Origin: Pristiophorus japonicus
Taxonomy: Eukaryota
Length of the DNA stretch: 64,000 nt
Reading direction: 5' to 3'
Assembly: GCF_044704955.1 (NCBI RefSeq)
Contig: NC_091980.1
Location: forward strand, 133,176,001-133,240,000
The notes below the pieces were generated by a model. It was not told the origin of the DNA. It saw only the letters and a program-made list of their open reading frames with translations, and ran no database searches. The translations under genes were made by a program, and so were the position numbers. Positions 24,740-53,890 of the stretch are shown here, piece after piece (positions within the stretch are counted from its first letter, which is position 1; each line of letters starts with the position of its first letter).

Positions 24740-27700
24740 ACAGACACCAGGAGTACGGTAAGGCTGGCCAGACCCACCAGGGGTGACAGCACAGTGGTAT
24801 ACAATCGGGAGGGAGTGGCCCTGGGAGTCAACATTGACTCCAGACCCCATTAAGTCTCATGGCTTCAAGTCAAGCATGGGCAAGGAAACCTCCTGCTGAT
24901 TACCACCTATTTCCCTCCCTCAGCTGATGAATCACTACTGCTCCATGGTGAACATCACTTGGAGGAAGCACTGATAGTAGCAAGGGCACAGAATGTACTC
25001 TGGTTGGGGGACTTCAATGTCCATCACCAAGAGAGGCTCAGAAGCACCAATACTGACCGAGCTGGCCGAGTCCTGAAGGAACGGGCTGCCACATTGGGCC
25101 TGCGACAAATGGTGAGAAAACCAACAGAAGGGGAAAAACCTACATGACCTCGTCCTCACCAATCTACCTATCACAGACACATCTGTCCATGACAGCATTA
25201 GTAGCAGTGACCACTACACAATCGTTGTGGAGAAGAAGTCCCAACTTCACATTGAGAACACCCTCCATCGTGTTGTGAGGCACTACTACCATGCTAAATG
25301 GGATAGATTCAGAACAGATTTATCATCTCAAATCTGGGTATCCATGAGGTGCTGTGGGCCATCAGTAGCGGCAGAATTGTATTCTGTAGTGTCTCTGCAC
25401 CTTGTTACAAACTCACACGAGGCATGTATATATCAGACATGGTCACTCTGTGACCTTCACTTTATTCCCAGTACCAAAGAGTGCTGACCCTGGGTGGGAC
25501 CTCCCCTTTTATACTTGGAAACCCAGGTGAGGAGTGTCTTCCGCAAGCTCACCCCCTGTGGTCAGGGTGTGCATTTCAAGAGTACAGGTACAGTGTGCAT
25601 CAGTTACAGTTCCTTAACTATTGTCATTGCAAGATGGTGAAATACATGACATCACCTCCCCCCTTAAGTCTTTTAGTTTCAGAGATTAAGTCTATCGGGT
25701 GGTCGACGCTCTCTCATGGAGTGCCGCAGTTGTGGCTCTGGTGGCTGAGCCTCAGCACGCATCTCTGTCACTTGAGGTGATTCCGGCCTGTCTGGGCTGG
25801 CCGCCGGGACTGTGCATGCTGAGGGCTGTCTTTGTTGCTCATACGCTGATAGTGGAATGGGTGCCATCTCATCATGTTCTTCTTCCAGTTCCTCCGTGTC
25901 TATGCTGAACCTTGTCTTTACTTGGTCCAAGTGTTTGCGGCATATCTGCCCATTGTTTAGTCTGACCACCATGACCCTGTTTCCTTCTTTGCCAATTACG
26001 GTGCCCTCAAGCCACTTGGGTCCCAAAGCATGGTTAAGAACAAATACCGGGTCATCTATTTCTATACACCTCCCCTTTGAGCCTCGATCATGGAGCTCGG
26101 TTTGGGACTGGCGCTTGCCCTCAACAATGTCTGCCAGGTCTGGGTGAATGAGGCTCAGTCGTATCTTGAGCCTGCGTTTCATGAGGAGTTCCCTGGCGGG
26201 ACTCCCGTGAGCGAGTGCGGCTGGGACCTGTAGGCCAGCAGGAGACGCGTTAGGCTGTACTGAAGGGAGGGTCCTTGGATGCGTAGCATGCCCTGCTTTA
26301 TGACTTGGCCCGCCCGTTCCGCCTGGCCATTGGAAGCCGGCTTGAATGGCGCTGTCCGGACGTGCTTGATCCCATTGCCCGACATAAACTCCTGGAATTC
26401 ATGGCTGGTAAAATACGGGCCAGTCACTGACCAGGAAGTCCGGCAAGCCATGGGTCGCGAAAACCGTACGCAGACTCTCCACTGTGATTGAACTCGTGCA
26501 CGACATCCATATGATGCACTCGATCCACTTTGACTATGCGTCGACAATGATCAAGAACATTTTCCCCATGAACGGGCCCGTAGCCATGGCCTGGTGGGCC
26601 AGGGCCAAGGGCTGAGTGGCGCCTCCCTGGGGGCATTGCCCAGCTGGGCACACGTCGTGCACTTGCGAACCCAGTGTTCCAGTTCTGAGTCAATCCCCGG
26701 CTACCATACATATGACCGGGCAATGGCCTTCATTAACACGATGCCAGGGTGCTCACTGTGGAGTTCCCTGATGAAGGCTTCCCTTCCTTTCTGGGGCATG
26801 ACTGCCCGGCTGCCCCAGAACAGACAGTCGGCTTGGATGAAGAGTTCGTACATCCGTCTCTGAAATGGCCTGACTTCCTCGGGGCACGCCCTGTGTGTGG
26901 GCACGCAATTCCCAGTCAGGACACATTTCTTTATCATGGATAGGAGGGGGTCCCTGTTGGTCCAGAGTTTGATCTGTCGGGCTGTGATGGGGGTGCCGGC
27001 AGTGTCAAAAGCCTCAACGTCCATGACCATCTCGGCGTTCTGCTCTGACGTCCCCTCGGTGGTGGCCAGTGGGAGCCTGCTGAGTACGTCAGCGCAATTT
27101 TCGGTGACTGGCCAGTGCAGAATGGTGTAGTCATACGCAGCCAGCGTGAGGGCCCATTGCTGTATGCGAGCTGACGCGTTAGCGTTGACAGCCTTGGTGT
27201 TGGACAACAGGGATGTTAATGGCTTATGGTCCGTCTCTAGCTCGAACGGTCTTCCGAAAAGGTACTGGTGCATCTTTTTCACACCGTACACACACGCGAG
27301 TGCCTCGTTCTCGACCATGCCATATCCACGCTCTGCCTGGGAGAGCGACCTGGAGGTGTAAGCCACCAGTTGGAGTCGGCTATCATCGGCACCCTGCTGC
27401 AATATACACCCAACCCCGTAGGATGACACATCGCATGTTAAAACCAGTTTGTTTTTTTTAAAACAGGGGTCATACAAAGTCAACAGTTTGTTGGAACACA
27501 GCAGGTTCCTCGCCTTATTGAAAGCCCGTTCTTGATAATCCCCCCAAAACCATTCACACCCTTTACGGAGGAGCATGTGTAATGGATCCAACAATGTGTT
27601 GAAGTTCGGCAGAAAGTTCCCAAAATAGTTCAAAAGTCCCAGGAATGATCGCAACTCCGACGTGTTGCCGGGCCTGGGCGCCCGGCAAATCGCCTCAGTT

Positions 27701-30700
27701 TTTGATTCAGTGGGCCAGATCCCGTCTGCGACAACCCTGCTGCCCAGGAACTCGACCTCTGAGGCCAAAAACATGCACTTTGCCCTTTTCAGCCGCAAGC
27801 CTACCCGATCCAATTGGCATAGCACCTCCTCCAGGTTGCGGAGGTGTTCCTCGGTGTCTCGACCCGTTATAAGGATGTCGTCTTGGAATACGACCATTCC
27901 AAGGATGGACTTGAGCAAGCTTTCCATGTTTCGCTGAAAGATAGCCGCTGACGAACGAATGCCAAACGGACACCTGTTGTAGACAAATAGTCCTTTGTGC
28001 GTCGTGATGGTGGTCAGAAGCTTGGAATCTTCCGCCAGTTCCCGAGTCATGTAGGCCGAAGTGAGGTCCAGCTTCGTGAACAGCTTTCCACCTGCCAACG
28101 TGGCAAAGAGGTCCTCCGCTCTCGGAAGCGGGTATTGGTCTTGCAGAGACACTCGGTTGATGGTGGCTTTGTAGTCGCCACAAATTCTAACCGAGCCATC
28201 TTCTTTGAGGTCGGGAATGATGGGACTTGCCCAGTCGCTGAATTCAACGGCCGAAATTATGCCCTCTCTGAGCAGCCTGTCCAGTTCACTTTCAATTTTC
28301 TGGCTTTGGCTTTGTGGTGCACTGGTCTGGCGTCCGGAGTGATGTGTATCACTACTTTAGTGCCTTTGAATGTTCCGACACCGGGTTGAAAGAGTGACTC
28401 GAATTTTTGCAATACCTGCGAGCATGACCTTTGCTCCACGGATGAAATGGCGTGCACGATCCCCCATTTCCAATTCATCTCAGCTAGCCAACTCCTCCCC
28501 AAAAGCGCGGGGCCATTTCCTGGAACAATCCAGAGTGGCAGCCGGTTCTGTAATCAATTATGCGTTACAACCAAATTTGCACTGCCCAGCACTGGGATGA
28601 TCTCTTTGGTGTACGTACGTAGCTGCGTCTCAATGCGTTCCAGTTTGGGCCTGCCAGCTCTGTGTGGCCATAGTCTCTCAAATTGTTGGGCGCTCATGAG
28701 TGACTGGTTAGCTCCCGTATCCAGCTCCATGTGCACCGGGATGCCATTCAGTAAGACTTACATCATCATGGGTGGCGTTTTAGTGTATGAGCTGTGGATG
28801 TCAGCCACATGAACTCTCTGAACTTCAGCATCCATAGTTGTTCCCCAGGCCTCATCCTGCATTGCAGACCCCTCGTCTGGTTCCTCTGTCTCACAGACTA
28901 GCCTCGCTACTGCCTTTTTGCATATCCTGGTCAAGTGTCCACAGACATTACAAATCCTACAGGCATAAAGCTGGAACCTGCAGCTTTTGGCAGTGTGTCT
29001 ACCCCCACATCTCCAGCATGAGCTGAGATTGCTGCTAACAAAAGGACTATTCCCAGTCATGCCTCTCTGATGGCCCGTTTGGCTGTTTCTAAGCACTCTG
29101 AATGGTCCCATCATGGGATGCATTGTTCCTCGTGATGGCGTGAATTGCCAATCCCCTTTCCATTGTCCCTGTTGCGGGCCCACCCTGGAGCTTGTTGCTG
29201 CCTGGGCGGTGTCGAATTGCCCTTGGCTGCCAGCCTGGGCGGTGTCGAATTTCCCTTGCCTGCCTGGGGGTTCTGTATCATTTTTACAACAGTAACTGCC
29301 TGGTTCATCGCAACGTTAAAACCAGGGCTATGTGCGTAAAGTAGCTTGGTCTCCTCTTCTCCTGCCATAAAGGTCTCAGCTATCAACGCCGCTCCTTCTA
29401 AGGTCAGGTCCATGGTCTTTATAAGCTTCCTGAAAATCCCGGCATGATTAATGCCCTCGATGAAAAAGTCCCTTAATATCTCCTCCCTGCAGGCATCGGA
29501 GAACTTAGCGACTGGCCAAATGCCACAGTTCCGCCACGAAGTCCGAGACGTTCTGACCCTCCCGACGCTGGAGAGAGTAGAACCGGTGCCAGGCCATGTG
29601 TACGCTACTGGAGATGCTCACTGATCAGCTGGCTGAGCTCTTCGAAGGCCTTGTCCGCTGGCTTTTGGGGTACGAGCAGGTCTTTCATCAGCGCATACGT
29701 CTGTGGACCACAGCTGGTCAGTAGATGCGCCCTCCGCTTGTCAGCCGCTGTCTCTTCGAGCCAGCCCTTTGTGACAAAGCTCTGCTGGAGTCTTTACACA
29801 AAGTCGGCCCAGTCCTCACCCACACAGTAGCGTTCCTTTGTGCCACCGGTGGCCATCCTCATGGTTCAGTGATTCCCATATCTCGTCGCCAGATGTAGTG
29901 TCTTTGCACCTTGTTACAAACTCACATGAGGCATGTATATATCACTCTGTGATCTTCACTTTATTCCCAGGACCAAAGACTGCTGACCCTGGGTGGGACC
30001 TCCCCTTTTATAACTGGAAACCCAGGTGAGGAGTATCTCCCGCAAGCTCACCCCCTGTGGTCAGGGTGTGCATTTCAAGGGTACAGGTACAGTGAGCATG
30101 AGTTACAGTTACATAACTATTGTCATTGCAAGATGTCGAAATACATGACATATTCCACCACAATCTGTAACTGCATGGCCCAGTATATCCCTCACTCTAG
30201 CATTACCATCAAGCCAAGGGGAGCAACCCTGGTCAATGAGGAGTGCAGAAGAGCATGCCAGGAATAGCACAGGCATACCTAAAAATGAGGTGCCAAACTG
30301 GGGAAGTTGCAACACAGGACTACATGCATGCTAAATAGCGGAAGCAGCATGCTATAGAAAGAGCAAAACAATCCCACAATCAACGGATCAGATCAAAGGT
30401 CTGCAGACTACCACATCTAGTTGTGAATGGTGGTGGACCATTAAACAAGTAACGGGAGGGAGAGGCTCCATGAACATCCCCATCCTCAATGATGGAGCAG
30501 CCCAGCTCGTCAGTACAAAAGACAAGGCTGAAGCGTTTGCAAACAGCTCTAGCCAGAAGTGCCTCATGATCCATCACGGCCCCCTCCTAGGGTCCCCACC
30601 ATCACAGAAGCCAGTCTTCAGCCAATTCAATTCACTTCACATGATATCAAGAAACAGCTGAGCGCACTGGATACAGCAAAGACTATGGGACCCGTTCACT

Positions 30701-36108: not shown

Positions 36109-37495
36109 TGTAAGGGTCGAAAATCCAGTGCTACACTATATAAAAAAAAAAGGCACCCGGTAACAAGGAAAGAGCATGGGATCATCCTCTGATCGAACTT
36201 TGGCCAAGGCAAGCCACAGGAAGAAAGGCAGGCTGGGAAGAATGTCTGTGGCCGGACACTGATTTCGAGGGGCACAGGCTGGCTGAGAAGCCAGCCAATC
36301 CCGGGAAAGTGCATCCTGGGCTGACCAGTGAATCGTGCCGGGCCAGAAGCAGGGAAATCATCGACCAATGGGAAATACCAGGCCCATTTTGTAAAGAACA
36401 GCTTACCTGGATCTAATCAAGGAGATAGGCCTATTACCAGCCCATTACCCATGTACATAAAGACAATTGGAAAGCCTCACACCTCAGTACATCCCAACCC
36501 TGACAATAGCCAGCCAGACAATTAGGCACCGAGGTGCACAAGAAACAATGCTTTACATTTAACACCTCATCCCCACCTCGACTCAAACAATGAAACATTG
36601 ATTCAGTTTGGGCGCAAAAAGGGCCGGAACTGAACCGAATATAAAGGCAAGAGCAAGAAGGACGCACAGGCGGAGAAGGAGACGCACACAAGAAGGACAC
36701 ACGCTCAGAAGGAGACATACTCAGACAGAGACAGAGACAGACAACACCTCGAAGGAAGAGAGAGGGACTCAGCCTCGCAGCAAATAAAACCTCCAAGGAC
36801 GACTGGAGAAGCCCGATTTAAGGTAGGACCCACTATACCTGTCAAAAGGGAAACTGAGTATCACCCTGGTGTCTTTTCTCAACTGTCAGCTTAGGCTAGT
36901 TAGGTGTAAAGGAGGGGGTAGGTGATAGAGTGGGTGTAAGGATTTTAAACTTGTGTAAAACTTCCGATGTGTTCGTTCCTCCCATAGACCTTTTCTTAGT
37001 TCAAGGTGGTTCAACAAGCCAGTGCGTCGACCTTGTATTTCACTTGGTCCACACTTTGGGAGCTCGTACCAAATATACATGTGTGTATTAGCCTATGTGT
37101 TGTTTTAGCAGTGTAACCTTGTTTAAACGCGCACCTGGGTTTTAATAAAGTAGGACTTACCTGAATTTTCCAGGAACATTTCTTGTCTTTTGCATCTGAG
37201 TGTTTTATTGTGGGAAGCTCACTATCCACCTAAATTCTGAGGTCAGAACCAGATAGGGGTACAGGACGCCTCAAATACGTCAAGGTTGTGATTGGATATA
37301 AGCGGCCGCAGACATATTGGTGGTATCAAACATATCACTAAGCTGTAATTGGATATAAGCAGCCTTAGGCATATTGGTGGTATCAAACATATCACTAAGC
37401 TGTAATTGGGTATAAGCAGGAAGAAAAAGATCCACTGGTGATAGCAACTCAAATCACCATAGTCTGAACGCTGCGCCCAGTCACCAGCAACCGCA
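36109..37495 (+). repeat. 5' LTR of the provirus
   Basis: Colinear with 44620-45929; TATAAA ~36640, AATAAA ~36783; internal 57-bp tandem repeat 37291-37419. Confidence 0.88.
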
Positions 37496-37517
37496 GAAGG
37501 AAAAACCCCTGCAACTA

Positions 37518-39436
37518 ATGGCGACCCAGATGGGACATCAGTGGGAAAATGAGCTGACCACCTCAGAGAAGGTGATCCTGGAACATTCCAAATTTGGAGA
37601 CAGAATTAAAGATTCTGTGTTTTCTAAAGTTAATTTTTCTAAGGCTTGGGTTCAGAGCCTGACAAGAGCGCCGCATCCAGCAGACGCGGCGGCCCAGTGG
37701 ACTGCGGGCCCAAGCTATAGAAAGAATATAGAGAAGGCGATCTGGCTAATCTGCTTGACAAGTCAGGTTAGAGAGCTAGACCTCCAGGAAGGGAGGTTAC
37801 AGGATGAATTCAAAGAAGCAGTGATAACCTCAGCAGTCAGCAGTGCAGCGGGTACTAAGGTCACAGAAGAGTTAATAGAGGAAAGGAATAGAAGGGCACA
37901 GTTAGAGGAAATGTTCCGCAATCATCAGGAGTACCTGCAGAGTCAGGTTACAATGTCTCGGGCTGTGAAGCAGAAACATAGGGACGAAGTATAACCTATG
38001 CAAAGCAAGTATTGGAATTGCAGGGCCAGCTAGAGGATTTGCGTGTTGCCTATAAAGTCAATACGGAAATCAGCCGTGAGAAGGCAGATCATGCGCCCTG
38101 CCAGAAACGGATCCAATCCCTCCTCCAGGCTTGGTCCCAGATAAAGGGTGTGTGTCTGCTGGGGCCCAGGGGGGCTACCAATAAATGGGGAGTGGAGGAG
38201 GATCCGACGGCAGAAGCCAGTCGACTGCCTCCCAAGGCGCCGGTGGTGTGTCCGGCAAGCTTCAGGGAGGAACAGAGAGTGCAGTCCAAGAAGCCCACAG
38301 GGCATGGGACCGGCCAGGGAGAGTCAGTCCAGCCAAAAGGGCATGGGGCCGGCCAGATGGAGCCGACCCAGCCAAAGGTGTATGGGACACCCGTAGAAAG
38401 GGTCGAGTCTGTCAGTTTGATCACGGCTGAAGAGCAAGGGGAGCCAGTAGTAACATCAGCAGCGGGACCGATGTGCCTGGCTGTGCAGAGAAAGTACGGC
38501 TCCCCACAGGGTGCGCAACTCCAGGGACCGCTCGACAGCGAGTTTATTATCCCGCATAGGGTGCAAGCCCTAAAGGCTATGGTATCGCACATCCCCAAGC
38601 TGACTAGGCAAAGAGACCCGTATGCCCATTTCCTGGAAGTAGCGCAGGCAGTAGACCTCAATGCCTGCGATAATGCAGAAGCGGTTAAAGTGCTCCTATT
38701 CTCAATAGATGGAAGAATCTATCAGGCTCTTCCCCCTGTTTGTCGAGGGGGACACTGTACCTTGGAGGCTCTGAAAAGGGCCATCCTGGAAGCTGTGGGG
38801 TGGAACGAGGGAAGCCCTTTCGAAAGCATAGCAAAGACCCGTCAGCTAACCAGAGAGGCCCCACAGATCTATGTGGACAGGCTGTGGCTGGCGTATAGCG
38901 CAGCCTGCTGGGGCCTGCTCGACAGGGCTAATCTCACGGTAGAGCAGAGGGAGGCCTGGTTTCACACCATAATCGCAAACAGCCTGCCCAGTGTAAAGGA
39001 AAGGGCAGACCTCTGGTTTATCCCCGCAGACTCCAACCTCGCAGAGGACATGATAGGCAGACTGACCGCCACACGGCAGATGGAGGAGGAGGAGAAGCCT
39101 GAAAAACCCATAAAGGGTCGGGTGCACACGATGCAACCCAACCAAACCCCCAAGAAAGAGTGGCATCAGGAAGGGGGATATCCTTCCGATAAGAGGGAGG
39201 TTTGTTACGGGTGCGGCAAGCCGGGCCATTTCCGCAACAACTGCCGGACCAACCCGTACCGCACCAAGGAAGTAAAAACACTGCCGGAGGGGAACCCAGG
39301 CGGTGAGAAACCCAGGGCCACTGCAGCATTCGAGACTGTGGTGGAAACCCTCAGGCAGCTGCTGGCAGGTTCCAGCCAGGTGAACGTAGCTGTAGGCAGG
39401 GAGATCCCAACAGCTCCCCTACAGCAGAAGTTGTGA
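37518..39436 (+). pseudogene. gag: gag (one frameshift near 37990)
   Basis: ORFs 37518-37994 and 38012-39436; E/Q/L-rich helical N-terminal part; CCHC knuckle CYGCGKPGHFRNNC. Confidence 0.85.
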
Positions 39437-41753
39437 CTAGGCCCCACCAAGTCCGCCTACCTGTGTCCGCTGGACTACGACTCGTTGGGAAGACCGTGGG
39501 TAAAAATGGAGGTGGAGGGGAGCCAGGGTGATTATTTGTTGGACACGGGGGCTTCAAGCACCCTTGTCCACACAGAGGACCCGGCCTCCTCATCCCTGTC
39601 TAACGGTGTACCCTACGAGCTGGTCAGCTTCACAGGAGACGAGAGGGCTGGGTACTTCTCAATCCCATTGACCCTCAAGTTGGGAGCACTTACAACCAAA
39701 TGGAAGTGCGTCCTAATGCGATGGGAGCAGGCTAACAAGGGGATACTAGGGGCAGATTTCGTAAAAGCCCACTAGATTCTGGTGGATTTACGAAATCACT
39801 GTTTATGGGGAACAGTAGATCCAGGAGAGAATAACGAAGTCATGATTATTGAGAAAGTGCAGGACAAAGGGACCCTATGTACTGTGAAGCTGAAAGGGGG
39901 TTACAATTTGGAGCTTCTGGTCAGGAACACCCCGGCCGAGTACAGGGCCTATGTGCGAGCCAGTCTCGCAGCATTTGCCACCCACAAACACGATTGTGGG
40001 AGAGTCACCGGTGTCGAAGTCCGGGTAGATGGGGATCCCATGTCCCATCCTCGGAGGCAGTATAACTTCGAGAGAGGCAGAAGCCGACTTGGAGGTAGCA
40101 CTGAGCTCGCTGGTGGAGCAGGGTGTGTTGAGACCCATAGCCACACACGTGAACTCTCCCCTGTGGCCGGTCAGAAAACCGGACAACTCAGAGAGCCACT
40201 GTGGACTATCGGGTGCTCAATAAAAGCATCCCGGCTTATGCTCCCACAGTAGCCGCAGTGGCGGACCTGATCAGGGAAATCCCTGTGACTGCCACTACCT
40301 TTTCAGTGCTGGATATCTCCAACAGCTTCTGGTCCATCAGGCGGGTAGAGGGACCATGGCAGTCGATCCAAATCGACTATATAGGGCCCCTACCAACTGC
40401 CCAGGGAGGTTATAAATATTGCCTCGTCCTGGTGGATGTGTTTTCCAAGTCTTCCCTTAACGAACAGCTACTGCATGGGGGACGGCTAAGATCCTGGTCC
40501 GGGACGTGTTCTCAAGATGGGGTCTGCCACAGTTTGTGGAGTCTGACTGGAGAAGTCACTTCACCGGCCGGGTGATGTAGGCTACCTTAAAGGTACTGGG
40601 GATTAAAGCACGGTGGCATGTGGCTTACAAACCTCAGTCCTCAGGCCCTGTAGAACGCCTCAACCGCACTATAAAAGAAAGGCTCCGCAAGGAGACAGGG
40701 AATTTCCACAATCGATGGGTAGAGGTCCTGCCCCTAGTCCTCATGGTATCCGGGCCGGTCAGTCCAAAAGCACAGTATTCGTCCCACGAAATAATGACCG
40801 GGCGGCCCATGAGAACCCCAGTACACCTACTGGTGCCGAGCCTCACAGAAGGGCAACTTCGGGAAGCTAACCGGGACCATTTTGCTAGGAATCTGCTGGA
40901 ACAGCTGCAGCAGATTCACTGGCAGGCAGCCACCAACATGGGAAGACAGCACATTAGCAACAAGCTGCTGCTGGAGCCCCGCAGCCACCACAATTGGGAA
41001 GTAGGCGACCAGGTTATGGTCCGCAACTTTGCCAGGGTGGGGGTGTTTGAGCCACTGTACATGGGGCCCTACAGTATAGTGGACAAGGCAAACCCTATGG
41101 TTTATGCAGTCCAATTACCCCGCCAGGCAAAGTGGTTCCACATAAACTAATGCAAGCGGTTCAACCCTACTAGGGCAGGAAAAGGGAAGGCTTCCACAGG
41201 TAAAGAAACCCCACGGGAGACAGAGGACATTTCAGTGGATGTGGAAGCTGTAACAGAGGTCAACCTCGGCCCCGAAGCCCCACAACCCGGAATAGACCAC
41301 TGCCACAGTAAGACCATCACACAGCAGAGTGAAGTGGCACAGCCTGATAGGCAGGAAAGGGACTTAGCACAGGAGAAGGGAGTCCTGTGCAGTATAACAG
41401 AGAAAGGGATAGACCAGTGTGAGGACCAAGGGGTGCAGCCCGTAACATGGGACTCCGCGCCCCTGGTTAGGCATAGTTCCAGAGTGAGACAGCCTAGGAT
41501 GCCTTGCTCCCCAGAATACCTTCCCACCCGTCCCAGAGTCAGACGAGAAAAGAAGCACAAGAGTGGCAGACTCTGTGGTAAAAGGGACACCACCAAAAGG
41601 CCCGGAAAGATCCCAGACACCGAAGGGCCCACAGAAATTGAAGCAGGACACTTAAAAGAAGTCCTCCTGCAAGCTCTACAAAAGGGGGCAGTCCGGCTCC
41701 TGGGGCAAGGTCAGCAAGATGGCCAACCAAGCCAAGTCAGTATCAGAGACTGA
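39437..41753 (+). pseudogene. pol: pro-pol remnant: protease, RT N-terminus fused by deletion to the integrase core, long C-terminal tail
   Basis: LLDTGAS and ILGADF (PR); NSPLWPVRK, DYRVLN, LDISNSFWSI (RT); IQIDYIGP, PQSSGPVERLNRTIK, GPY (IN); several stops and frameshifts. Confidence 0.9.
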
Positions 41754-41917
41754 CAAGGCCACCCGGAGACGGGTGGCATTGTATATAGCCCGGTGTTCTG
41801 AATATAGTTTAGGGAGATTTTAAAGTGAGGTGATGGTGGTTTTTATTTTGTGATGTTACTCCGGTCTAGCCTGAAGAAGCCTCAGGCAAGACAGTGTTCA
41901 ATCTGGTGTTCCAGAAG

Positions 41918-44155
41918 ATGCTCCAGACCACCGCGATGTTATTTTCCTACCTGGGGACCTGCACCGGACAGAAACTCGACATCGAGATGGCTTTGTCATA
42001 TGGGTGATCCAGGGACAGGGCGCCAATCGTGACCACGGGAGAAGGGATCATGGAGGCAGAAGGCCAGGCCACCTACTTCCACAAGGGGAGATGACCTGGG
42101 TGGTTGGGTTCGAATTCCACCCGGTATTCGAGCCACGAGAGCTTTACCTATGGGGCCTCCATCCCTTGACCCGAAAATCGAGATGGCCACCTCCCGGGTT
42201 AGGATGACAGAGGGAAGGAGAGTGTGTTTAACGTGTGTTGGGGACATACCTTTGGGACACTGTCCGCGCTCAGTTTCCTGAGCCACTACCATCGAGGACA
42301 GCAGCTCAGACTGGGAACGTTTGAGCAATGACACCTACCGGACGATCACGGGGTCACCATGTGTTGGGAGAAATGGTGGGCCTATGATCAGGGGATCTAT
42401 TCCTGCTTATGGGGCTCAGCCCGAATATGCCCAGCTGGGCTGTCCATTGCTTTTGCCCGATGGTGGAAGGACTCGTGGAAGGGGATGGAATGGGATCGCA
42501 GCAGGGAAGATTGTGTGCTTACTCGCTTCCGGGTATCGGTCAACGCCACCGAGCTGCTGGCTCAGGTGAAGAAACCCCTGCCCACGCCCAAGCCTATTGA
42601 CAGTTATGGATGTCTGTCCACCACTCAGGGACCTGGGAATGGGTTAGTGTTAGTACCGACAGATAAGTTAGTATACCAGGGAGTACATTATACTGTTGCT
42701 TCAGTAATTCTAAACCTGACAGAAGTTCACCTACCTGCCTTCTGCCCCAGAGACACCGAGTTGTTGTATCAAGCTCTACTGAAGGAAATGTTCTGGAACT
42801 TTTGCGAGTTGGACTTTGGGGACATCAATGTAGCAGACTTGTATAGGCAGGAAGACACAACCGAACGAGGCAGGCAACGCAGGGGTGTCATGAACGACGT
42901 TTTTACGGGGATCAACACTGGGGCCTCTGTCATGAACAGCCTGGACGAGGTGCAGCTGGCCCTACAGATTAACAGGTTAAAATCACAGCTGCGCAGCATC
43001 CTTGGCAAGGAGAACCACGTATTGGGTTCCTCACTGCATGAGGGGGTAGCTATGACGGTACACCTTAAAGAAATCATTACTCAGACAGAGAAACATGCCC
43101 GAACCATAAATGTCCTGATCAGGGAGGACCGGCTGGCCTCCGATCAAGCTGCGCAGAATGAGGTGTGTGTAATCTACGGGGCCTGGTTGCTGGGAGGGGG
43201 ACGGAGTAACTTGGGGGACCTTAGGCAAGGTCGGGTCCCCTTGTGGATCAGTAACAGGCACCTGGAGGAACTACACCCCTATAACAGCACCCTCAGCTCC
43301 TGTCAACTCCGGGTAGCGTCCGAGGCCTACCCTGTCCCAGTTGACTGCGGGAAATCTAACCACACCATCATGGGCATAGTCGTACGGATGCCAGTCATGG
43401 GGCCATCCACCAAACCAGCACCCCTGTACCATGTCGAAAACATAGGAGTCATTCGAGAGGGGGTGCACGTCCGTTTCGCAATGGTCCCATCCTATGTCAT
43501 TATGTGGGGAACGCGCCATGACAGGGACAGACTTAGCTGGTTGCCGTAGCCGGAGCACAGGAAGCCACAGTGCGGGTTTAGCACTGCTGGGGCAGAACCT
43601 ATAAATTGCACGATGGAGGTGATGGCACCTGGCCATGTACCTCCACAGATAGCATATGTAGGTGGTGGGACGTATTGTGTCACCACAACTGCCCACCGGT
43701 ATAGACACGGCCCGAGTGAGTGGTGTGATATTCCGGACAGCAGTTTTTGCTTTAAATGCAGGGCGGAAGTTCAAGTGGCCCAGGAAAGGATCATTCCAAT
43801 CCCAGAACCCTCCACAGTTCACCTCACGGTACAATACAACGCAAGTGACCTGCAGAAGCAGAAGTACGCTGTCTGTTTTGGTTATCCTATACCATTACTC
43901 CCTGAAAAGCTCACTGCCTTGTTGAAGGCAGTGGAACTCAGCCAAAAGCATTATTACACCCTGGAACAAAGGACAAAGATTATAGCCCTCGAGATTGTAA
44001 ACATACAGGTACCAGCATGGTGGGACTGGGGTACCAGAGTAGACAGCCCTGTTTAGCTCCGTATGGCCTCCCACGCACTGGTTATTGCACAGTTAATTAT
44101 TGTCCTGTACCTTCTAGCAGTGCTTGTAAATCTAGGCAGGCTCAAAGGGCCGTAA
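41918..44155 (+). pseudogene. env: env: class I fusion glycoprotein, disrupted (5' end uncertain)
   Basis: Furin site RQRR (42872-42883), fusion-peptide-like GVMNDVFTGINTGASV, heptad repeat, Cys-rich region, N-glycan sequons, AWWDW, TM helix ALVIAQLIIVLYLLAVLV beyond a TAG at 44054. Confidence 0.8.
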
Positions 44156-44619
44156 TGTTCCAGAGACAGAAGCAAGACAGCCTTGTCTGATCATTAAGAA
44201 CGCTCTTTGTGTCCAGGTGTTCTTCCCTTTTTCAGAAACAAAGAAGGACACTCTGGCTGCCGTAACATCCCGAAAAAAAAAAAATTGCACGCGGAGACGG
44301 ACCAACCCTGTCACGAGGCACATCATGGACTCGTATACCATAGATATTCTCTGTGTAGTAACTGTGTGTTGGTGTGTTTTGAAACATGGCGCAAGAACCA
44401 CGTGAGTGTAATTTTGGGTTTGAAAGCTCTATGTAACTGAGACAAAGAGGTATGTGTTTTGTAATTTACCTGCAAGAAAGTGGGGTTAATGTACATAGTA
44501 AGAATGTTGTTGGTGCACCTGGGAGTAAACGGGCCTATAGGTCGACAATAATTATTGGGGAAGGCTGACACTTGGATTTTCACAGTCCTTTTATGTCTGG
44601 ATGTGTCAAGATGGGGGAG

Positions 44620-45929
44620 TGTAAGGGTCGAAAATCCAGTGCAACACTATTTTAAAAAAAAGGCACCCAGTAACAAGGAAACAGAGCATGGGATCATCCT
44701 CTAATCGGACTTTGGCCAAGACAAGCCACAGGAAGGCAGGCAGGCTGGGAAGGAAGGATGTCTGTGGCCAGACACTGTGAATTCGAGGGTCACAGGCAGG
44801 CTGAGAAGCCAGCCAATCCCGGGAAAGTTCACTGATTGCATTCTGGGCTGGCCATCGAGCCAGGCCAGAAGCAGGGAAATCGTCAACCAATGGGGAATAC
44901 CAGGACCATTTTGTAAAGAACAGCTTACCTGGATCTAATCAAGGAGATAGGCCTATTACCAGCCCATTACCCATGTACATAAAGACACTGGAAAGCCTCA
45001 CACCTCAGTACATCCCAACCCTGACAATAGCCAGCCAAACAATTAGGCACCTAGATGCACAAGAAACAATGCTTTACTTTTAACACCTCATCCCCACCTC
45101 GACACAATGAGACATTGATTCAGTTTGGGCGCAAAAGGGGCTGGAACCGAACCGAATATAAAGGCAAGAGCAAGGACACACAGGCGGAGAAGAAGACGCA
45201 CACAAGAAGGACACACACTCAGAAGGAGACATACTCAAGACAGAGACAAACAGAACCTCAAAGGAAGAGGGGGACTCAGCCTCGCAGCAGATAAAACCTC
45301 TGAGGACGACTGGAGAAGCCCGATTTAAGGTGGGACCCACTATACCTGTCAAAAAGGGAACAGAGTATCACCCTGGTGTCTTTTCCCAACTGTCAGCTTA
45401 GGCTAGTTAGGTGTAAAGGAGGGGGTAGGTGATAGAGTGGGTGTAAGGATTTTAAACTGGTGTAAAACTTCCACTGTGTCCATTCCTCCCATAGACCTTT
45501 TCTTAGTTCAAGGTGGTTCAACAAGCCAGTGCGTTGACCTTGTATTTCACTTGGTCCACACTTTGGGGGCTCGTACCAAATATACATGTGTGTATTAGCC
45601 TGTGTTGTTTTAGCAATGTAACCTTGTTTAAATGCCAAAAAAAGGACTGACCTGAATTTTCTAGGAACATGTCTTGTCTTTTGCATCCGAGTGTTTTATT
45701 GTGGGAAGCTCACTATCCACCTAAATTCTGAGGTCAGAACCAGATAGGGGTACAGGATGCCTCAAAAACATCAAGGTTGCGATTGGATATAAGCGGCTGC
45801 AGACAGATTGGTGGTATCAAACATATCACAAAGCTGTAATTGGGTATAAGCAGGAAGAAAAAGGTCCACTGGTGATAGCAACTCAAATCACCATAGTCTG
45901 AAGGTTGCACCCGGTCACCAGCAACCGCA
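44620..45929 (+). repeat. 3' LTR of the provirus
   Basis: Starts TGTAAGGGTCG immediately after the PPT; homology with the 5' LTR ends at ...AACCGCAGAA. Confidence 0.88.
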
Positions 45930-48016
45930 GAAAGAAAGACAAAGAAGGGATAACCATCCATGGTTAACTGAAGGAAATAAGGGATAACAAATTGAAAACC
46001 AGGGCATACAATGTGGCCAAAACTAGTGAGAGGCCAGAGGATTGGGAAATTTTTAAACGCCAGCAAACAAAATTAAAAAAATTTAAAAAAAGAGAGAGAA
46101 GATAGATGAAAGTAAACTAGCATAAAAATTAGTAAGAGTTTCTACAGGTACATCAAAAAGGAAAAGTGAGATGAAAGTAAATGTTGGTACACTGGAGGAT
46201 GAGACTGGGGAGTGAATAATGGAGAACAGGGAAATGGCAGAGATGTTGAACAAATATTTTGTATCAGTCTTCACAGTAGAAGACATTAAAAACATCCCAA
46301 TAGTGGATAATCAAGGGGCTGTAGGGAGGGAGCAATTTATTACAATCACTAATGAAGTAGTACTCAGTAAAACAATGGGACTAAAGGTGGTCAAGTCCCC
46401 TGGGCCAGATAACTTACATCCTAGGATCTTAAAGCAGTGGCTGCAGAGAAAGTAGATGCATTGGTTATAATCTACAAAAATTCCCTGGATTGTGGGACGG
46501 GACCAGGGGATTTGGAAAACTGCAAATATAACACCCCTATTTTAAAAAAGGAGGCAGATAAAAAGCAGGAAACTATAGACCAGTTAGCCAAACATTTGTT
46601 GGGAAAATGCAGGAGTCCATTATTAAGGAAGCAGTAGCAGGACATTTGGAAAAGCATATCAATCAAGCAGAGTCAGCATAGTTTTATGAAAGGCAAATCA
46701 CATTTGACAAATTTGCTGGAGTTCTTTGAGGATGTAACGAGGTGGATGGATAAGGGTGAACCAATGGATCTAGTGTATTTTGATTTCCAGAAGGCATTTG
46801 AAAAGGTGCCACATAAGATGTTACTGCACAAGATAAAAGCTCGGGGTTGGGGGCAATATATTAGCATGGATAGAAGATTGGCTAACTAACAGAAAACAGA
46901 GTCAGGAAAAATGGGTCATTTTCCAGTTGCCAAACAGTGACTAGTGGGGTGCCACAGGGATCAGTGCTGGGTCCTTAACTATTTACAATCTATATTAATC
47001 ATTTGGATGAAGGGACGGAGTGTAATGTAGCCACATTTGCTGATTTAAGATGGGTGGGAAAGCAAATTGTGAGGGGGACACAAAAAAATCTGCCAAGGTC
47101 TATAGACAGGCTAAGTGAGTGGGCAAAAATTTGGAATATAATGTGGGAAAATGTAAGGTTATCTACTTTGGCAGAAATAGAAAAGCAAATTATAATTTAA
47201 ATGGAGAAAAATTATAAAAAGTGTTGCAGTACAGAGGACAGGATCTGGGGGTCCTAGTGCATGAAACACACAAGGTTATTATGCAGGTACAGCACGTAAT
47301 CAGGAAGGCAAATGGAATGTTGGCCTTTATTGAAAGGGGGAAGAGAGTATAAAAGCAAAGAAGTCCTGCTACAATTGTACAGGGTGTTGGTGAGGGGAGG
47401 TCACACGTGGTGTACTGTGTGCAGTTGTGGTCTCTATTTAAAAAAATAAGATACTTATTTTGGAGGCTGAAGAGAAGGTTCACTAGGTTGATTCTGGAGA
47501 TGCCCAACCTATCTTCATTGGAGTTCAGAAGAATGAGAGATGATCTTATTGAAACATAAGATAATGAGGGGCCTTGACAAGGTAGATGCAGAGAGAATAT
47601 TGCCACTCAGGGGGAACTAAAACTCGGACAGTGTTAGATTTACAACCGAGTCGAAATTCCTCCTCATCTCAGTTCTAAATAGGTGGCGCCTTATTCTCTG
47701 CCCAAGAGCTGTGGAGGCTGGGTCATTAAATATATTTAAGGCAGAAATACAGATTTTTGAATAATGAGTGTAAAGGAGTATGAGGAGTGGGCAGGGAAGT
47801 GGAGTTGAGTCCATAATCAGATCAGCAGACTCAAGGAGCCAAATGGCCTACTCCTGCTCCAATTTCTTATATACTGATGTTCTTAAATTTCAGTATCCCA
47901 CAACTGTTGCACAGCTCAGTGCAATTCTCGATCAATGTAAATCAAGTTATGTTAATAGAAAATAAGCAACCACTCCAAACTCACAAGGAGACAAATCCCA
48001 GTCCAATATTGAACAG

Positions 48017-49447: not shown

Positions 49448-52400
49448 TGTTATATATGTGGACTTGTATTTATTCTGTACAGCCACCAGAGGGCTCATCC
49501 CCTGGAGTCCCAAGGGATCCCATAATCCCTTGGAGCAGAGCTATTTAAGGAGGCTTCACAGGTTGGAGGCACTCGAGACCTACAATAAAAGACCAAGGTC
49601 ACACTTTACTTTGAGCTCAATGTTCAGTCTGACTCGTTCTCCATAAACAGCTGGAGACAAGATACAGATAGCAAACCCAAAGATGGAGAAGTGGGCATCA
49701 TGGAGAAATTTTCTGGGAGAGATGGGAAACTTTTGTGGAACAACTCAACCAATACTTCGTGGCCAATGAGCTAGATGGGGAGGGAAAAAAAAAAGAAAAG
49801 AGAAAAAAAAAAAAAGCTGCCAAACACAGGGCGAGCCTCCTCACCATCTGTGGGGCACCAACGTATGGCCTCAAGAATCTGCTCACTCCAGCAAAACCCA
49901 CGGAGAAATCATAAAACAATTTGTGCACATTGATCAGAGAGCATTTGAGCCCAAAGGAAAGCATTCTGATGGCAAGGTACCAGTTCTATATCTACAAATG
50001 GTCTGAAGGCCAGGAAGTGGGGAGTTATGTCACCGAGCTAAGATGCCTTGCAGGACATTTGGAGCACATGCTCAGACATTTGTACTTGGCATTGGCCACG
50101 AAACCACACTTTGCACATTTTGACTGGAGACCCCAATCTTGAGTAAGGCTATAGCAATAGCCCAGTCGTTCATTGCCACCAATGACAATATGAAGCAAAT
50201 CTCAGTACACGAGTGCTGCTACAAGTACTGTGAACAAAGTGATGTTTTTGAATCACAACGTACAGGGCAGGTCACACATACCTGCAGCTGCACATCCACA
50301 GATGTCAGAGTCCACCATCAAGAGTGATGAATGCAAGGCCATTAACACTTTGTTGGCATGATCATTTCCATTCATGCTGATTCAAAGAGTACTTTTGCAA
50401 GGGGGAAAACAGTGGGACACCAACGTGTGCAGGAGTTGCAAAACCTATTAAACCTGCAAACCACCATGTTGCAGAGGAGGACAGATCCACAGAAGATCAC
50501 AACAAACCAGAGCCTCAGATAGGAGGCAGAGGTACATGGCGTGCACACATTCACCACGAATTGTCCCCAGATATTGCTGAATGTTGAACTAAAGGGACTC
50601 CCGGTGTCAATGCAGCTGGATACAGGCACAAGCCAGTCCATCATGGGCAAAAAGACTTCAAAGGTTGTGGTGCAACAAGGCCTCAAGGCCAATCTTAACT
50701 CCAGTTCGCACGAGACTAAGAACTTACACGAAATAACTGATTCCAGTAACCGGCGGTGCTACAGTAAAGGTCTCCAACAATGGAACAGTGCACAAGCTAT
50801 CACTCTGGGTGGTACCAGGCAATGGTCCCATGCTGCTTGGCAGGAGCTGTCTGGGAAAGATATGCTGGAACTGGGATGACATCTGAGCCCGCTGACAACA
50901 CTGTGTGCCCAAGTCTTAAACAAGCTCCTTTCGCTGTTCGAACCAGGCATCATGAAATTCCAAGGAGCAAAAGTGCAGATCCACCTAGTTCCAGGGGTGC
51001 GACCCATCCATTACAAGGCGAGAGCAGTAGTGTACATGAGAGAAAGGGTAGAGATCGAGCGAGACCAGCTGCAAAGCAAGGGCATCATTTCACTGATCGA
51101 GTTCAGCGAGTGGGCCAGTCCTGTTGTCCCAGTCCTCAAGGGAGACAGCACCGTCAGAATCTGTGGCAATTACAAAGTAACTATCAATCATTTCTCCCTG
51201 CAGGACCAATACTCACTACCAATGGCAGAGAACCTCTTTGCAACGCTGACAGGAGGAAAGACGTTCACAAAGCTGGATCTGACTTCAGCCTACATGACAC
51301 AGGAACCGGAGGAATCATCAAAGGCCCTTACCTGCATCAACACGCACAAAGGTCTTTTTGTTTATTACAGATGCCCATTTGGAATCCGATCAGCAGCAGT
51401 GATATTCCAGAGAAACATTGAAAGTTTACTGAAGTCGGTCCCGCCCAGCGTGGTCTTCCAGGATGACATCTTGGTCACAGGTCAGAACACAGTTGAGCAC
51501 CTGCAGAACCTGGAGGAGGTTCTTAGTCGACTCAAGCGCATGGGGCTCAGGTTAAAATGCATGAAGTGGAGTTCTTGGGAAGGAGGATTGTGGCAGATGA
51601 CATCAGGTCCACCAACGCGAAGACTGAGGCAATCAAGAATGCACCAAGACCACAGAACTACTTTGGTAACTTCTTCCCGGGTCTCAGCACCCTGCTAGAA
51701 CCACGACATATCTTACTACAAAAAGGGGGAGAATGGTTTGGGGCAAAAGCCAAGAAAATGCATTTGTAAAAGCGAGAAAATTGTTCTGCTCAAACAAACT
51801 GCTTGTGTTGTATGATCCATGTAAGCATTTGGTACTAGCATGTGATGCATCGTCATATGGAGTCAGGTGTGCATTGCAACACGCTAATGATTACAGGAAA
51901 TGGCAACTGGTTGCTTGTGCATCCAGGAGTCTGTCTAAGGCGGAGAGAGCCTACAGCATGACTGAAAGAGAAGCATTAGCATGTCTAAAGTGGTGAAGAA
52001 AATGCATCAATACTTGTTTAGGCTAAATTCGAATTGGAAACTGACCATAAGCCACATATATCCCTGTTTACCAAGTGTAAAGGGATAAATGCCAATGCAT
52101 CGGCCCGGATCCAGAGATGGGCGCTCATGTTGTCCACATACAATTACACCATCCGCCCCAGAAAACTGCGACATGTTCAGTCGGCTGCCATTGCCCACCA
52201 CTGGGGTGGAAATGGCACAGCCTGCAGATCTAGGCATGGTTATGGAAACATTTGAGTGAGCAGTCACCCATCACTGCCCGGCAGATCAAAACCTGGACAA
52301 GACAGGACCTCATTATCTCTAGTCAAAAGCTGTGTGCTTCATGGGAGCTGGTCCAGTGACCGAGTAAAAATGCAGGGAGATAAAGCCGTTCCAGTGACAC

Positions 52401-53890
52401 AAATATGAAAGCTCGATACAGGCAGACTGCCTCTGTGGGGCAATGGAGTAGTGGTCCCCAAGGGCAGAGACACCTTCAATGACCTCCATAGTACCCACCC
52501 AGGCATCGTAATGATGAAAGAGATAGCCAGATCCCACATGTGGTGGCCCGGTATTGATGCAGACTTAGAGTCCTGCGTCACAGATGTAATACATGCTCGC
52601 ACTTAAGCAATGTACCCAGGGAGGCGCCACTAAGTTTATGGTCTTGGCCCTCCAAACCGTGGTCTAGGGTACACGTCGACTATGCAGGACCGTTCTTTGT
52701 TAACATGTTCCTTATGGTTGTAGACGCGTACTCCAAGTGGATTGAATGAGATGTCGGCTAGCACGTCCGCTGCCACTACTGAAAGCCTGTGGGCCATGTT
52801 TGCCACACACAGCTTACCTGATGTCCTGGTGAGCGACAACAGGCCATGTTTTACTAGTGCAGAGTTCAAATAATTCATCAACCGTAACAGGATCAAACAT
52901 GTCACATCTGCCCCGTTTAAGCCAGCATCCAATGGTCAGGCAGAGAGAGAGCAGTACAAACCATCAAGGTGGCTTGAAGAGGGTAACTGAAGGCTCACTG
53001 CAGACTCACCTATCCCAACTCCTGCTTAGCTACTGCATGAGACCACTCACTGGGATCCTGCTGAACTGCTTATGAAAAGAGCATTTAAGACAAGGCTCTC
53101 ATTCATGCAGATCAGGGTGCACGAACAGGTAGAGAGCAGGCCGCTTCAACAAAGTGCATACCATGATAGCGCAAATGTGTCACACGAGATTGAAGTTAAT
53201 GATCTTGTATTTGTATTAAATTATGGACAAGGTCCCAAGTGGCTTCCCGGCACTGTCGTGGCCAAAGAGGGGAGCAGAGTGTTTCGGGTCAAACTTTTAA
53301 ATGCACTCATTCGCCAGAAACACTTGGACCAAATCAAACTCAGATTCACAGACTATCCTGAGCAACCCACCTTGGACCCTACCTTTTTGGATCCCCCAAC
53401 ATGCACAACAGTGGCAACTGGCACCACAGTTGACCACAAAGCAGAACCCATCATCCACAGCAGCAGTGCAGGGCCCAACACGCCAAGCAGCCTAGCAAGA
53501 CCAGCTGCAGAGTGGCCCAGCAAAGGCCCAAATAATTCACCACCACCAGCTTTCACACCGAGACAATCAACCAGGGCAAGGGCCCCAGATCGACTCACAT
53601 TGTAAATAGTTACACTGTTGACTTTGGGGTTGGGGGGGGGGGGGGGGGGCAGTGCAGCGGAGGGGGGGTGGCAGGGAGTGTTTTATGTATGTGGACTTGT
53701 ATTTACTCTGTACAGCCACCAAAGGGCTCATTCCCTGCAGACCCAAGGGATCCCATAATCCCTTGGGAGTGCAGGTATTTAAGGAAGCTTCACAGGTTGG
53801 AGAGGCACTCTGGAGACCTGCAATAAAAGACAAAGGTCACACTTTAATTTGAAGTAGGTGTTCAGTCTGACTCTCTCCATATACACAACA
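49448..53890 (+). mobile_element. Ty3/Gypsy LTR retrotransposon D in ferritin copy 3 intron 1 (antisense to the gene)
   Basis: LTRs 49448-49649 and 53679-53890; perfect TSD GAAAC; empty site CATGGAAACAATC in copies 1 and 2; RT FQDD ORF 50952-51698. Confidence 0.94.

Follow-up and report, generated by a model that had tools for sequence, protein, structure and literature searches.

A high-copy shark endogenous retrovirus, likely related to snakehead retrovirus, with an envelope predicted to resemble paramyxovirus fusion proteins

Snakehead retrovirus (SnRV) has endogenous relatives known as ‘clade Huo’ (PMC6001957) and as CmiERV lineage I of the elephant shark (PMC4422223), and so a cartilaginous-fish host for SnRV-like ERVs is already published. 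Lokiretroviruses (Wang and Han, PMC7947760) have LTR-gag-pol-env-LTR genomes, an F-type Env with an RXXR site and a dual RNase H, all of which recur in the ERV family examined here. According to another paper by these authors (PMC9040795), independent env acquisition by lokiretroviruses and canonical retroviruses is preferred because no similarity between their Envs is detectable. Foamy virus Env and the F proteins of paramyxoviruses and pneumoviruses are class Ib fusogens with a domain I-III core; the RBD of foamy Env is inserted within this core, paramyxovirus F carries no attachment module, and the extra module of coronavirus spike is N-terminal (PMC11468914). Foamy-like fish ERVs have no Cys-His motif, keep gag and pol independent and mostly use tRNA-Lys (PMC5210030), and ERV4 of Repbase has a 5-bp target site duplication and no zinc finger (PMC4299795).

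The sequence analysed here (the window, a stretch of 64,000 nucleotides) carries on its plus strand a provirus arranged as LTR, tRNA-Arg primer site, gag, in-frame TGA, pro-pol, env, polypurine tract and LTR. An initial annotation had reported an LTR-gag-pro-pol-env-PPT-LTR provirus, and this element is real, as evident by the LTR pair, the Pfam pieces and the motifs found in the letters. That annotation lacked three features described below, namely an Ig-like domain, a primer site for tRNA-Arg and the TGA-CTAG junction between gag and pro. Its view that the genome is that of a shark is consistent with the closest named Env, which comes from Pristiophorus japonicus (92% to one sister copy). 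At least 150 related copies are present in the genome. The copy in the window is dead, with gag, pol and env all broken, and is in itself an ordinary decayed insertion. We consider it probable that this defective germ-line provirus represents a high-copy shark ERV inside canonical Retroviridae, likely related to SnRV, whose Env is predicted to be F-type with a likely N-terminal Ig-like attachment domain.

Both LTRs (36109..37513 and 44620..45933) begin with TGTAAGGG and are 94.3% identical over 1,293 aligned bases (K2P 0.060). The 5′ LTR has TG...CA ends and an imperfect terminal inverted repeat, and its end was set from sister copies, where the LTR stops 5 nt before the primer site. These bounds correct the earlier ones, in that the 5′ LTR extends to 37513 and the 3′ LTR, as judged by LTR alignment, is short by ~15-18 terminal bases. 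The primer binding site (37519..37536) is complementary to the 3′ end of host tRNA-Arg(CCG); its complement was found by pattern search at one site in the host genome, which ARAGORN identifies as tRNA-Arg(ccg). A polypurine tract (44607..44619) directly precedes the 3′ LTR. Four of the five sister copies with both ends visible show a 4-bp target duplication and the family has a CCHC motif, neither of which agrees with ERV4.

On the basis of a codon-level match to sister gag, the gag gene spans 37550..39436 (start approximate); its frame shifts near 37990, and it contains a single CCHC zinc knuckle and ends in TGA. The pro gene is in frame with gag and separated from it by this stop, whose context, TGA CTAG (39434..39440), is a predicted readthrough site that is found in 5 of 6 copies examined, the remaining copy having TGA CCAG. 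No RNA structure above that of shuffled sequences was found 3′ of the gag stop (z +0.89). The aspartyl protease (39437..39775; LLDTGA; Pfam gag-asp_proteas, E 2e-7) is followed by a premature stop. Pfam also detects the gag zinc knuckle and integrase pieces in the window, both with scores below the curated cut-offs. Sister Gag yields only weak coiled-coil Pfam matches, an smc-like region being a feature of some lokiretroviruses.

In a further correction to the initial annotation, damage to pol goes beyond frameshifts, since residues ~302-941 of sister Pol are missing. A frameshifted RT N-terminus (39776..40338; tblastn to sister Pol residues 4-302), in which the previously reported words HKHDCG, NSPLWPVRK and LDISNSFWSI are present, is joined to integrase at a 4-nt microhomology (40335..40338). 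According to comparison with sister Pol, this junction marks an internal deletion of ~1.9 kb, or ~640 codons, that removed most of RT, the tether, RNase H and the integrase zinc finger. What follows is the frameshifted integrase core and C-terminal domain with a long pol tail (40335..41753; Pfam and sister Pol). We rejected the deletion as the mark of a non-autonomous subfamily because the junction is spanned by only one of 40 scored matches, namely the window copy, and because the 11 other top integrase matches all retain upstream pol. Sister Pol encodes PR, RT, a tether-like RNase H, a second RNase H and IN. Dual RNase H is common to all retroviruses. Both domains are present in sister Pol and are deleted in the window copy, and the tether still scores as a Gypsy-type RNase H.

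Env (41900..44150, ends approximate) is still 70% identical to sister env at the nucleotide level across 2.1 kb, although it is interrupted by several changes of frame and by a stop at 43547. No RNA dataset was listed as carrying the env of the window, which has no bearing on whether it is expressed. A furin-type RQRR site (42872..42883) precedes a predicted fusion peptide and heptad repeat, and a membrane-proximal AWWDW (44015-44029) is followed, in another frame, by the transmembrane segment (together 44015..44125; sequence and sister Env). The initial annotation had placed the furin site about 400 codons before this segment, and the spacing is confirmed in a natural open sister Env, where residues 327-330 (furin site) and about 730-755 (TM helix) are separated by ~400 residues. 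The earlier F-like reading of Env, drawn from its layout, is likewise supported, by fold matches and language-model features. We built a model from the natural 777-aa sister ORF rather than from the broken window copy, with middling confidence (pLDDT 59, pTM 0.40; Ig region mostly under 50). The top 16 VIA rows for PDB structures are all paramyxovirus or pneumovirus F or foamy Env, the best being NDV F (Z 12.0, rmsd 18.6, 330 aligned). BFVD returns glycoproteins of Mononegavirales, the F protein of baculovirus and the Env of walleye virus (best E 4e-14), and Atlas language-model features score 0.94 to Fusion_gly/Baculo_F clusters. At the sequence level, neither Pfam nor PDB yielded a fusion-protein family for Env, and none of the Envs scanned matches Pfam Fusion_gly (PF00523). 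A gamma-type Env is not indicated, since there is no TLV_coat match, whereas control Envs do match, and the post-cleavage ectodomain is ~400 aa. From the model, the family Env is therefore predicted to fold like a paramyxovirus F-type fusion protein.

Upstream of this predicted core, Env likely carries an extra Ig-like (antibody-like) attachment head, to judge from its sequence. A remnant split by a frame change lies at 42180..42410 in the window, and the same region of sister copies matches Pfam Ig_3 (E 1.7e-4 to 0.05, below cut-off) and Atlas Ig clusters (0.91). The putative module is N-terminal, as in coronavirus spike, in contrast to the within-core RBD of foamy Env and to paramyxovirus F, which has none. 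Ig folds occur in other retroviral elements, including gammaretroviral RBD-C (bioRxiv 2024.03.17.585361) and the nectin3 of crocodilian CrocERV31 (PMC4299795). However, RBD-C sits on a gamma-type SU/TM and nectin3 replaces env, whereas the Ig-like domain here is fused to an F-type core. Our literature search found no report of an F-type Env in SnRV or its related group, nor of an N-terminal Ig-like domain on the shark Env, although an F-like Env of SnRV or of an epsilonretrovirus may already appear in bioRxiv supplements, Repbase entries or Viro3D figure labels.

Phylogenetic analyses place the family among canonical retroviruses. RT trees position it inside the retroviruses in a clade that does not contain the lokiretroviruses (100/95; 100/99 in the RT+tether tree), and its PR-RT-tether-RH-IN order and env agree with this position. 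The retroviral rather than Gypsy character given to it earlier thus holds, and neither the Metaviridae RT nor the single RNase H of Ty3/Gypsy elements was found. The F-like Env and retroviral assignments of the initial annotation are supported, but its suggestion of a lokiretrovirus of cartilaginous fish is not and is now highly improbable. The F-type Env with RXXR and the dual RNase H with its Gypsy-scoring tether are both listed for lokiretroviruses, and the Env motifs resemble, by eye, the lokiretrovirus Env rows in the source paper. However, the AU test rejects joining the family to lokiretroviruses (p=0.0086), and in three trees a starred branch parts the latter from the taxa among which the family falls, with a sample of only two lokiretrovirus-type RTs, labelled by likeness to rows in that paper. 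Against the same rows, the RT motif is LPQG rather than CPFG, LPFG or MPFG, a separate gag frame with a stop and CCHC knuckle differs from the single Smc-Gag-Pol frame of Loki-Str, the fusion peptide is less hydrophobic, and about 240 extra N-terminal Env residues, including the Ig-like domain, are absent from two complete Env rows (Xtr, Str). The initial annotation had also stated that a Pol falling within a described ERV group would count against its reading, and this is largely what was found, the group being the SnRV-related ‘clade Huo’ reported from elephant shark.

Within the retroviruses, the family likely belongs to the SnRV-related group, as judged by sequence. RT is 50-52% identical to its closest matches, unnamed frog and coelacanth Pols, 43% to SnRV, the nearest named virus, 35-36% to two lokiretrovirus-type RTs and 36% to one gamma-type Pol. 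It groups with SnRV in RT-only trees (89/94 in one, SH-aLRT 85 in another; not starred), whereas the grouping collapses to a basal polytomy in the RT+tether tree. The IN tree, which is poorly resolved and contained no CGIN1 row, joins the family to neither SnRV nor lokiretroviruses, and one RT searched against viral contigs gave no useful match. This polytomy and the identity of the closest RTs would also suit a separate, unnamed basal lineage of frog, coelacanth and shark elements that has no specific kinship to SnRV and is possibly nearer to foamy-like ERVs. The AU test does not reject joining the family to foamy viruses (p=0.068), although no tree does so (no fish FLERV rows were included), the best solved integrase matches are PFV IN, and foamy Env is among the fold matches. 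We regard this alternative as unlikely, given the RT-only trees, the alignment of family Env to SnRV Env, and the CCHC knuckle and one-frame gag-stop-pro arrangement, which foamy-like fish ERVs do not share. Slightly less unlikely, and compatible with the SnRV-related reading, is a recombinant that joined an SnRV-type pol to an F-type env taken sideways from a lokiretrovirus or negative-strand RNA virus. Recombination between pol and env is common in ERVs of fish and amphibians, with SnRV-related viruses that carry a gamma-type Env as one example (bioRxiv 2021.11.23.469661). However, related Envs are known from several sharks, from a skate and frogs and, weakly, from SnRV itself, and any env capture would therefore be very old.

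The SnRV-related reading also draws on genome architecture. In both SnRV and the family, gag ends in an in-frame stop with gag-stop-pro-pol in one frame, Gag has a single CCHC knuckle, RNase H is dual and the part of Env after the cleavage site is long; the gag-pro frame with stop and the CCHC in Gag occur in the SnRV-related clade but are not unique to it. Between the Env profile of the family and SnRV Env, 281 collinear columns can be aligned (prob 81%, E 1e-5), with a core alignable across the cleavage site; for two gamma-type Envs the prob is 4% and 0.4%. HMMER scores SnRV Env near noise against the family profiles (5.7 bits; best shuffle 4.2; MLV-type Env 4.8), and the SnRV Env model leans towards the shark/frog fold because shark and frog Envs made up its alignment, leaving weak evidence that SnRV's own Env is F-type. 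Differences include the junction (UGA CUAG versus the UAG GGC of SnRV; PMC13517186), Env size (777 aa with a short tail versus about 1,100 aa with a 136-aa tail) and SnRV-type 3′ accessory ORFs, none of which were noticed in the family. BLAST found no Gag similarity to SnRV Gag beyond the knuckle.

A functional member of this SnRV-related family would be primed by host tRNA-Arg, would make Gag-Pro-Pol by readthrough of the TGA CTAG stop and would integrate with a 4-bp target duplication. Cleavage of Env at RQRR would yield an N-terminal piece (Ig head and F2-like strands) and a long F1-like piece predicted to hold the fusion peptide, heptad repeat, beta domains, second helix and TM. The putative Ig head may bind the cell, after which the predicted F core would refold and fuse the membranes. 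The family likely spread in part by Env-dependent reinfection. Between subfamilies, env has dN 0.18-0.19 versus dS 1.1-2.4. Ten young copies with open env give a dN/dS of 0.45, a value that is biased because these copies were chosen for open frames. The window copy landed in a LINE fragment and later decayed.

An F-like Env alone is no proof of lokiretrovirus identity. A canonical, non-foamy family that is abundant in a shark, has relatives in a skate and frogs and carries a predicted F-type Env would bridge the gap between lokiretrovirus and canonical Envs and makes the origin of env testable through structure-based trees. We tentatively suggest, at somewhat less than even odds, that the F-type Env is the ancestral retroviral Env, retained in lokiretroviruses, foamy viruses, walleye epsilonretroviruses and the SnRV-related group, with short gamma- and beta-type TMs as later replacements. 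The F core of the SnRV-related group might then be a self-contained entry machine that has exchanged its N-terminal heads, among them Ig-like domains that differ between sharks and frogs. If true, an ancestral F-type Env would overturn the view, preferred in print, that env arose independently in lokiretroviruses and canonical retroviruses. The Ig-like head, in turn, suggests a way for an F fusogen to act without a separate attachment protein.

The initial annotation had described a retroviral element on the forward strand, and every motif that it quoted was found in the sequence. The element is bounded by a pair of LTRs (36109 to ~45933, + strand) that are 94.3% identical across 1,293 aligned bases (K2P 0.060). 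The 5′ LTR ends at 37513, 5 bases upstream of an 18-nt primer site whose pattern has a single genomic match, called tRNA-Arg(ccg) by ARAGORN. The gag frame carries one CCHC knuckle and ends in TGA, with protease downstream in the same frame, and a purine tract lies directly 5′ of the 3′ LTR, which lacks its final 15-18 bases. The element is lodged in a LINE-like fragment (RT-like matches at 46.4-47.4 kb), and because its left flank ends in GAAG and its right flank opens with GAAA, its target duplication has no certain reading. Tandem units of ~57 bp (37290-37430) number three in the 5′ LTR versus two in the 3′ LTR. Elsewhere the window consists mostly of LINE fragments, and it also holds four decayed Gypsy-type pol regions (7100-10700 and 25400-29000 on the - strand, 16500-18500 and 50400-52600 on the + strand) that form two pairs, ~72-78% alike.

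This provirus is real but dead. Relative to Pol from a natural sister copy elsewhere in the genome, it covers residues 4-302 and 941-1415 alone; ~640 codons are missing, which takes away the RT active site along with the tether, RNase H and integrase zinc finger, and the two remaining parts meet at a joint with 4 bases of microhomology. This deletion looks private to this copy, since all 11 of the other best integrase matches keep the upstream pol sequence and only one of 40 scored DNA matches, the window itself, spans the joint. Frame changes and stops also occur in gag, pol and env. At the two substitution rates quoted in the available text of PMC4422223 (2.2e-9 and 2.2e-10 per site per year), the LTR distance translates to a very loose range of ~14 to 136 million years. 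Beyond the integrase C-terminal domain, pol extends for ~200 codons as a low-complexity tail (41150-41753) that sister copies and snakehead retrovirus (SnRV) share.

The element belongs to a large shark ERV family. In the 5.9-Gb genome, an integrase piece gave at least 150 scored matches among 26,642 candidates, a sister env piece at least 150 among 17,962, and the window LTR type at least 40 among 299, figures that are lower bounds or candidates rather than copy numbers. Judged by sequence, the family contains at least two subfamilies; their proteins are 70-88% identical, and the window LTR has no blastn match to the LTR from one sister subfamily. The sister subfamily is younger, because its env pieces are 96-99% identical among themselves, one LTR pair shows 99.8% identity (963 bases), and copies chosen for openness carry an open 777-codon env frame. 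Of five sister copies in which both ends can be seen, four have a 4-bp target duplication and one does not; a sixth copy, which has no 5′ start, falls outside this count.

Five primer-site variants, one of them the window's, occur across five sister copies (5′ LTR ends, sequences L067-L076). These look like matches to different tRNA-Arg isodecoders, the match to a host tRNA gene being that of the window's type only; if so, the variants would be a record of alternative tRNAs used as primers. At the gag-pro junction, five of six copies have TGA CTAG and the other TGA CCAG. UGA CUA is the alphavirus type II context for readthrough, and we infer from sequence that the gag-pro stop is read through; no RNA structure above shuffles was found downstream of it. 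The available text of a review lists UAG GGC as the SnRV readthrough context and gives fish and frog retroviruses other contexts with UGA (PMC13517186).

The initial annotation had suggested a possible cartilaginous-fish lokiretrovirus (Loki) or a related new lineage. Sister Pol comprises PR, RT, a tether that retains an RT_RNaseH score, a further RNase H and integrase. We labelled the reference rows ourselves from motif or alignment likeness: SnRV (a 10,688-nt sequence and one protein) agrees with the SnRV alignment row of the Loki paper and with the published SnRV length; the Loki-type rows are two teleost proteins bearing the Loki motif RCPFGYANSP; motifs served to assign the foamy and gamma rows. 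The family RT is 50-52% identical to frog and coelacanth proteins, 43% to SnRV and 35-36% to the Loki-type rows. Trees were built from 73 rows (quick), 34 rows (careful, a subset taken to limit computing time) and 27 rows (RT plus tether), in each case from sets without fish foamy-like ERV, Odin or CmiERV sequences. All three place Loki as sister to all retroviruses, in agreement with published work, and the family inside retroviruses (support 98, 100/95 and 100/99, respectively). Holding the family with Loki was rejected (p=0.0086), and holding it with foamy viruses was not (p=0.068). With RT only, the family joins SnRV and frog, coelacanth, turtle and ostrich Pols (89/94); this SnRV-containing group collapses when the tether is added, and the integrase tree gives no resolution. 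On these tree supports and constraint tests, the lokiretrovirus assignment is firmly set aside in favor of a canonical retrovirus, and membership in the SnRV group is likely. The Loki host range given in the initial annotation (lampreys, bony fishes, amphibians and reptiles) is the same in the available text of PMC7947760, whose table has six cartilaginous-fish genomes without an asterisk, taken here as Loki-negative.

The proposal of a paramyxovirus-F-style Env fared better. Natural sister Env carries a signal peptide and ~240 N-terminal residues; its core starts near residue 245, RQRR occupies 327-330 and the TM helix lies at about 730-755. Sequence searches returned no fusion-protein family for Env; a profile search of 1.84 billion proteins found 41 with E of 0.001 or less, and the named ones are from sharks and frogs. 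The closest named Env belongs to the sawshark Pristiophorus japonicus (92%) and the next to the skate Rhinoraja longicauda (53%), which fits a shark host. An AlphaFold model (33 alignment rows, pLDDT 59) has F proteins as its matches: the first 16 rows in a PDB-wide VIA search are all paramyxo/pneumovirus F or foamy Env (Z 12.0 for NDV F, 9.6 for PIV5 F, 8.5 and 8.1 for foamy), matches that carry high rmsd from mixed conformations, with unrelated rows beginning at Z 5.7. Of the 51 BFVD matches with E no higher than 0.001, the best are Mononegavirales glycoproteins and baculovirus F; Atlas related Env to the Fusion_gly and Baculo_F clusters at 0.94, with ~200 or more features in common. The family Env is thus predicted to be F-type. 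Between subfamilies, env dN is 0.18-0.19 and dS 1.1-2.4, values that indicate purifying selection, as expected if particles needed Env. The BFVD matches also include WEHV-1 Env (2e-8) and WDSV Env (1e-5), a hint that Env of the exogenous epsilonretroviruses of walleye epidermal hyperplasia and dermal sarcoma may be F-like as well. Separately, predicted host gene models P0109, P0081 and P0087 carry pieces of the family's env joined to F-box (fbxo15, horn shark), Niban-like (sawshark) and cadherin sequences, possibly as annotation artefacts or exonised env; the P0109 piece matches Baculo_F at E 0.001.

The Env N-terminus is probably an Ig-like domain, on the basis of Atlas Ig clusters (0.91, sister residues 75-200), Pfam Ig_3 matches below threshold and a bamboo-shark homologue titled 'Ig-like domain-containing protein' in UniRef, rather than a fold match. 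This front varies. A V-set-like form occurs in one homologue and also ends a frog Pol model, a Mustelus protein has a Cys-rich one, and another homologue has none. By eye, a C...W...YxC pattern at the SnRV Env N-terminus (sequence L035, 6131-6500) aligns with the shark domain; Pfam gave no Ig match there.

An SnRV-related group is already known from sharks: in the available texts, CmiERV lineage I of the elephant shark is SnRV-like (PMC4422223), and clade Huo is the SnRV-related clade, with the widest host range (PMC6001957). The portions available of further papers show foamy Env to be F-like (PMC11468914), note that reverse-transcribing viruses have class I homologues of F (PMC12583693, where SnRV was not found by name) and state no detectable similarity between Loki and canonical Envs (PMC9040795). 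An F-type or Ig-bearing SnRV-group Env is absent from the available text of PMC13524379, PMC13709493, PMC12440569, PMC12193657, PMC4299795, PMC5210030 and two bioRxiv preprints, and was not found in the literature outside subscription papers, Repbase and preprint supplements. This Env architecture and its bearing on env origin seem undescribed.

The family Env profile aligns with SnRV's own Env over 281 collinear columns across the cleavage site (prob 81%, E 1.2e-5), versus prob 4% and 0.4% for two gamma-type control Envs; HMMER alone does not clearly separate SnRV Env from shuffles. A model of the SnRV Env core finds F proteins as weak matches (best E 9e-5 in BFVD, 4e-4 in PDB), and it was built on the shark/frog Env alignment and so is not independent. 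The profile alignment and the core model suggest that an F-type Env is a trait of the group and no shark oddity.
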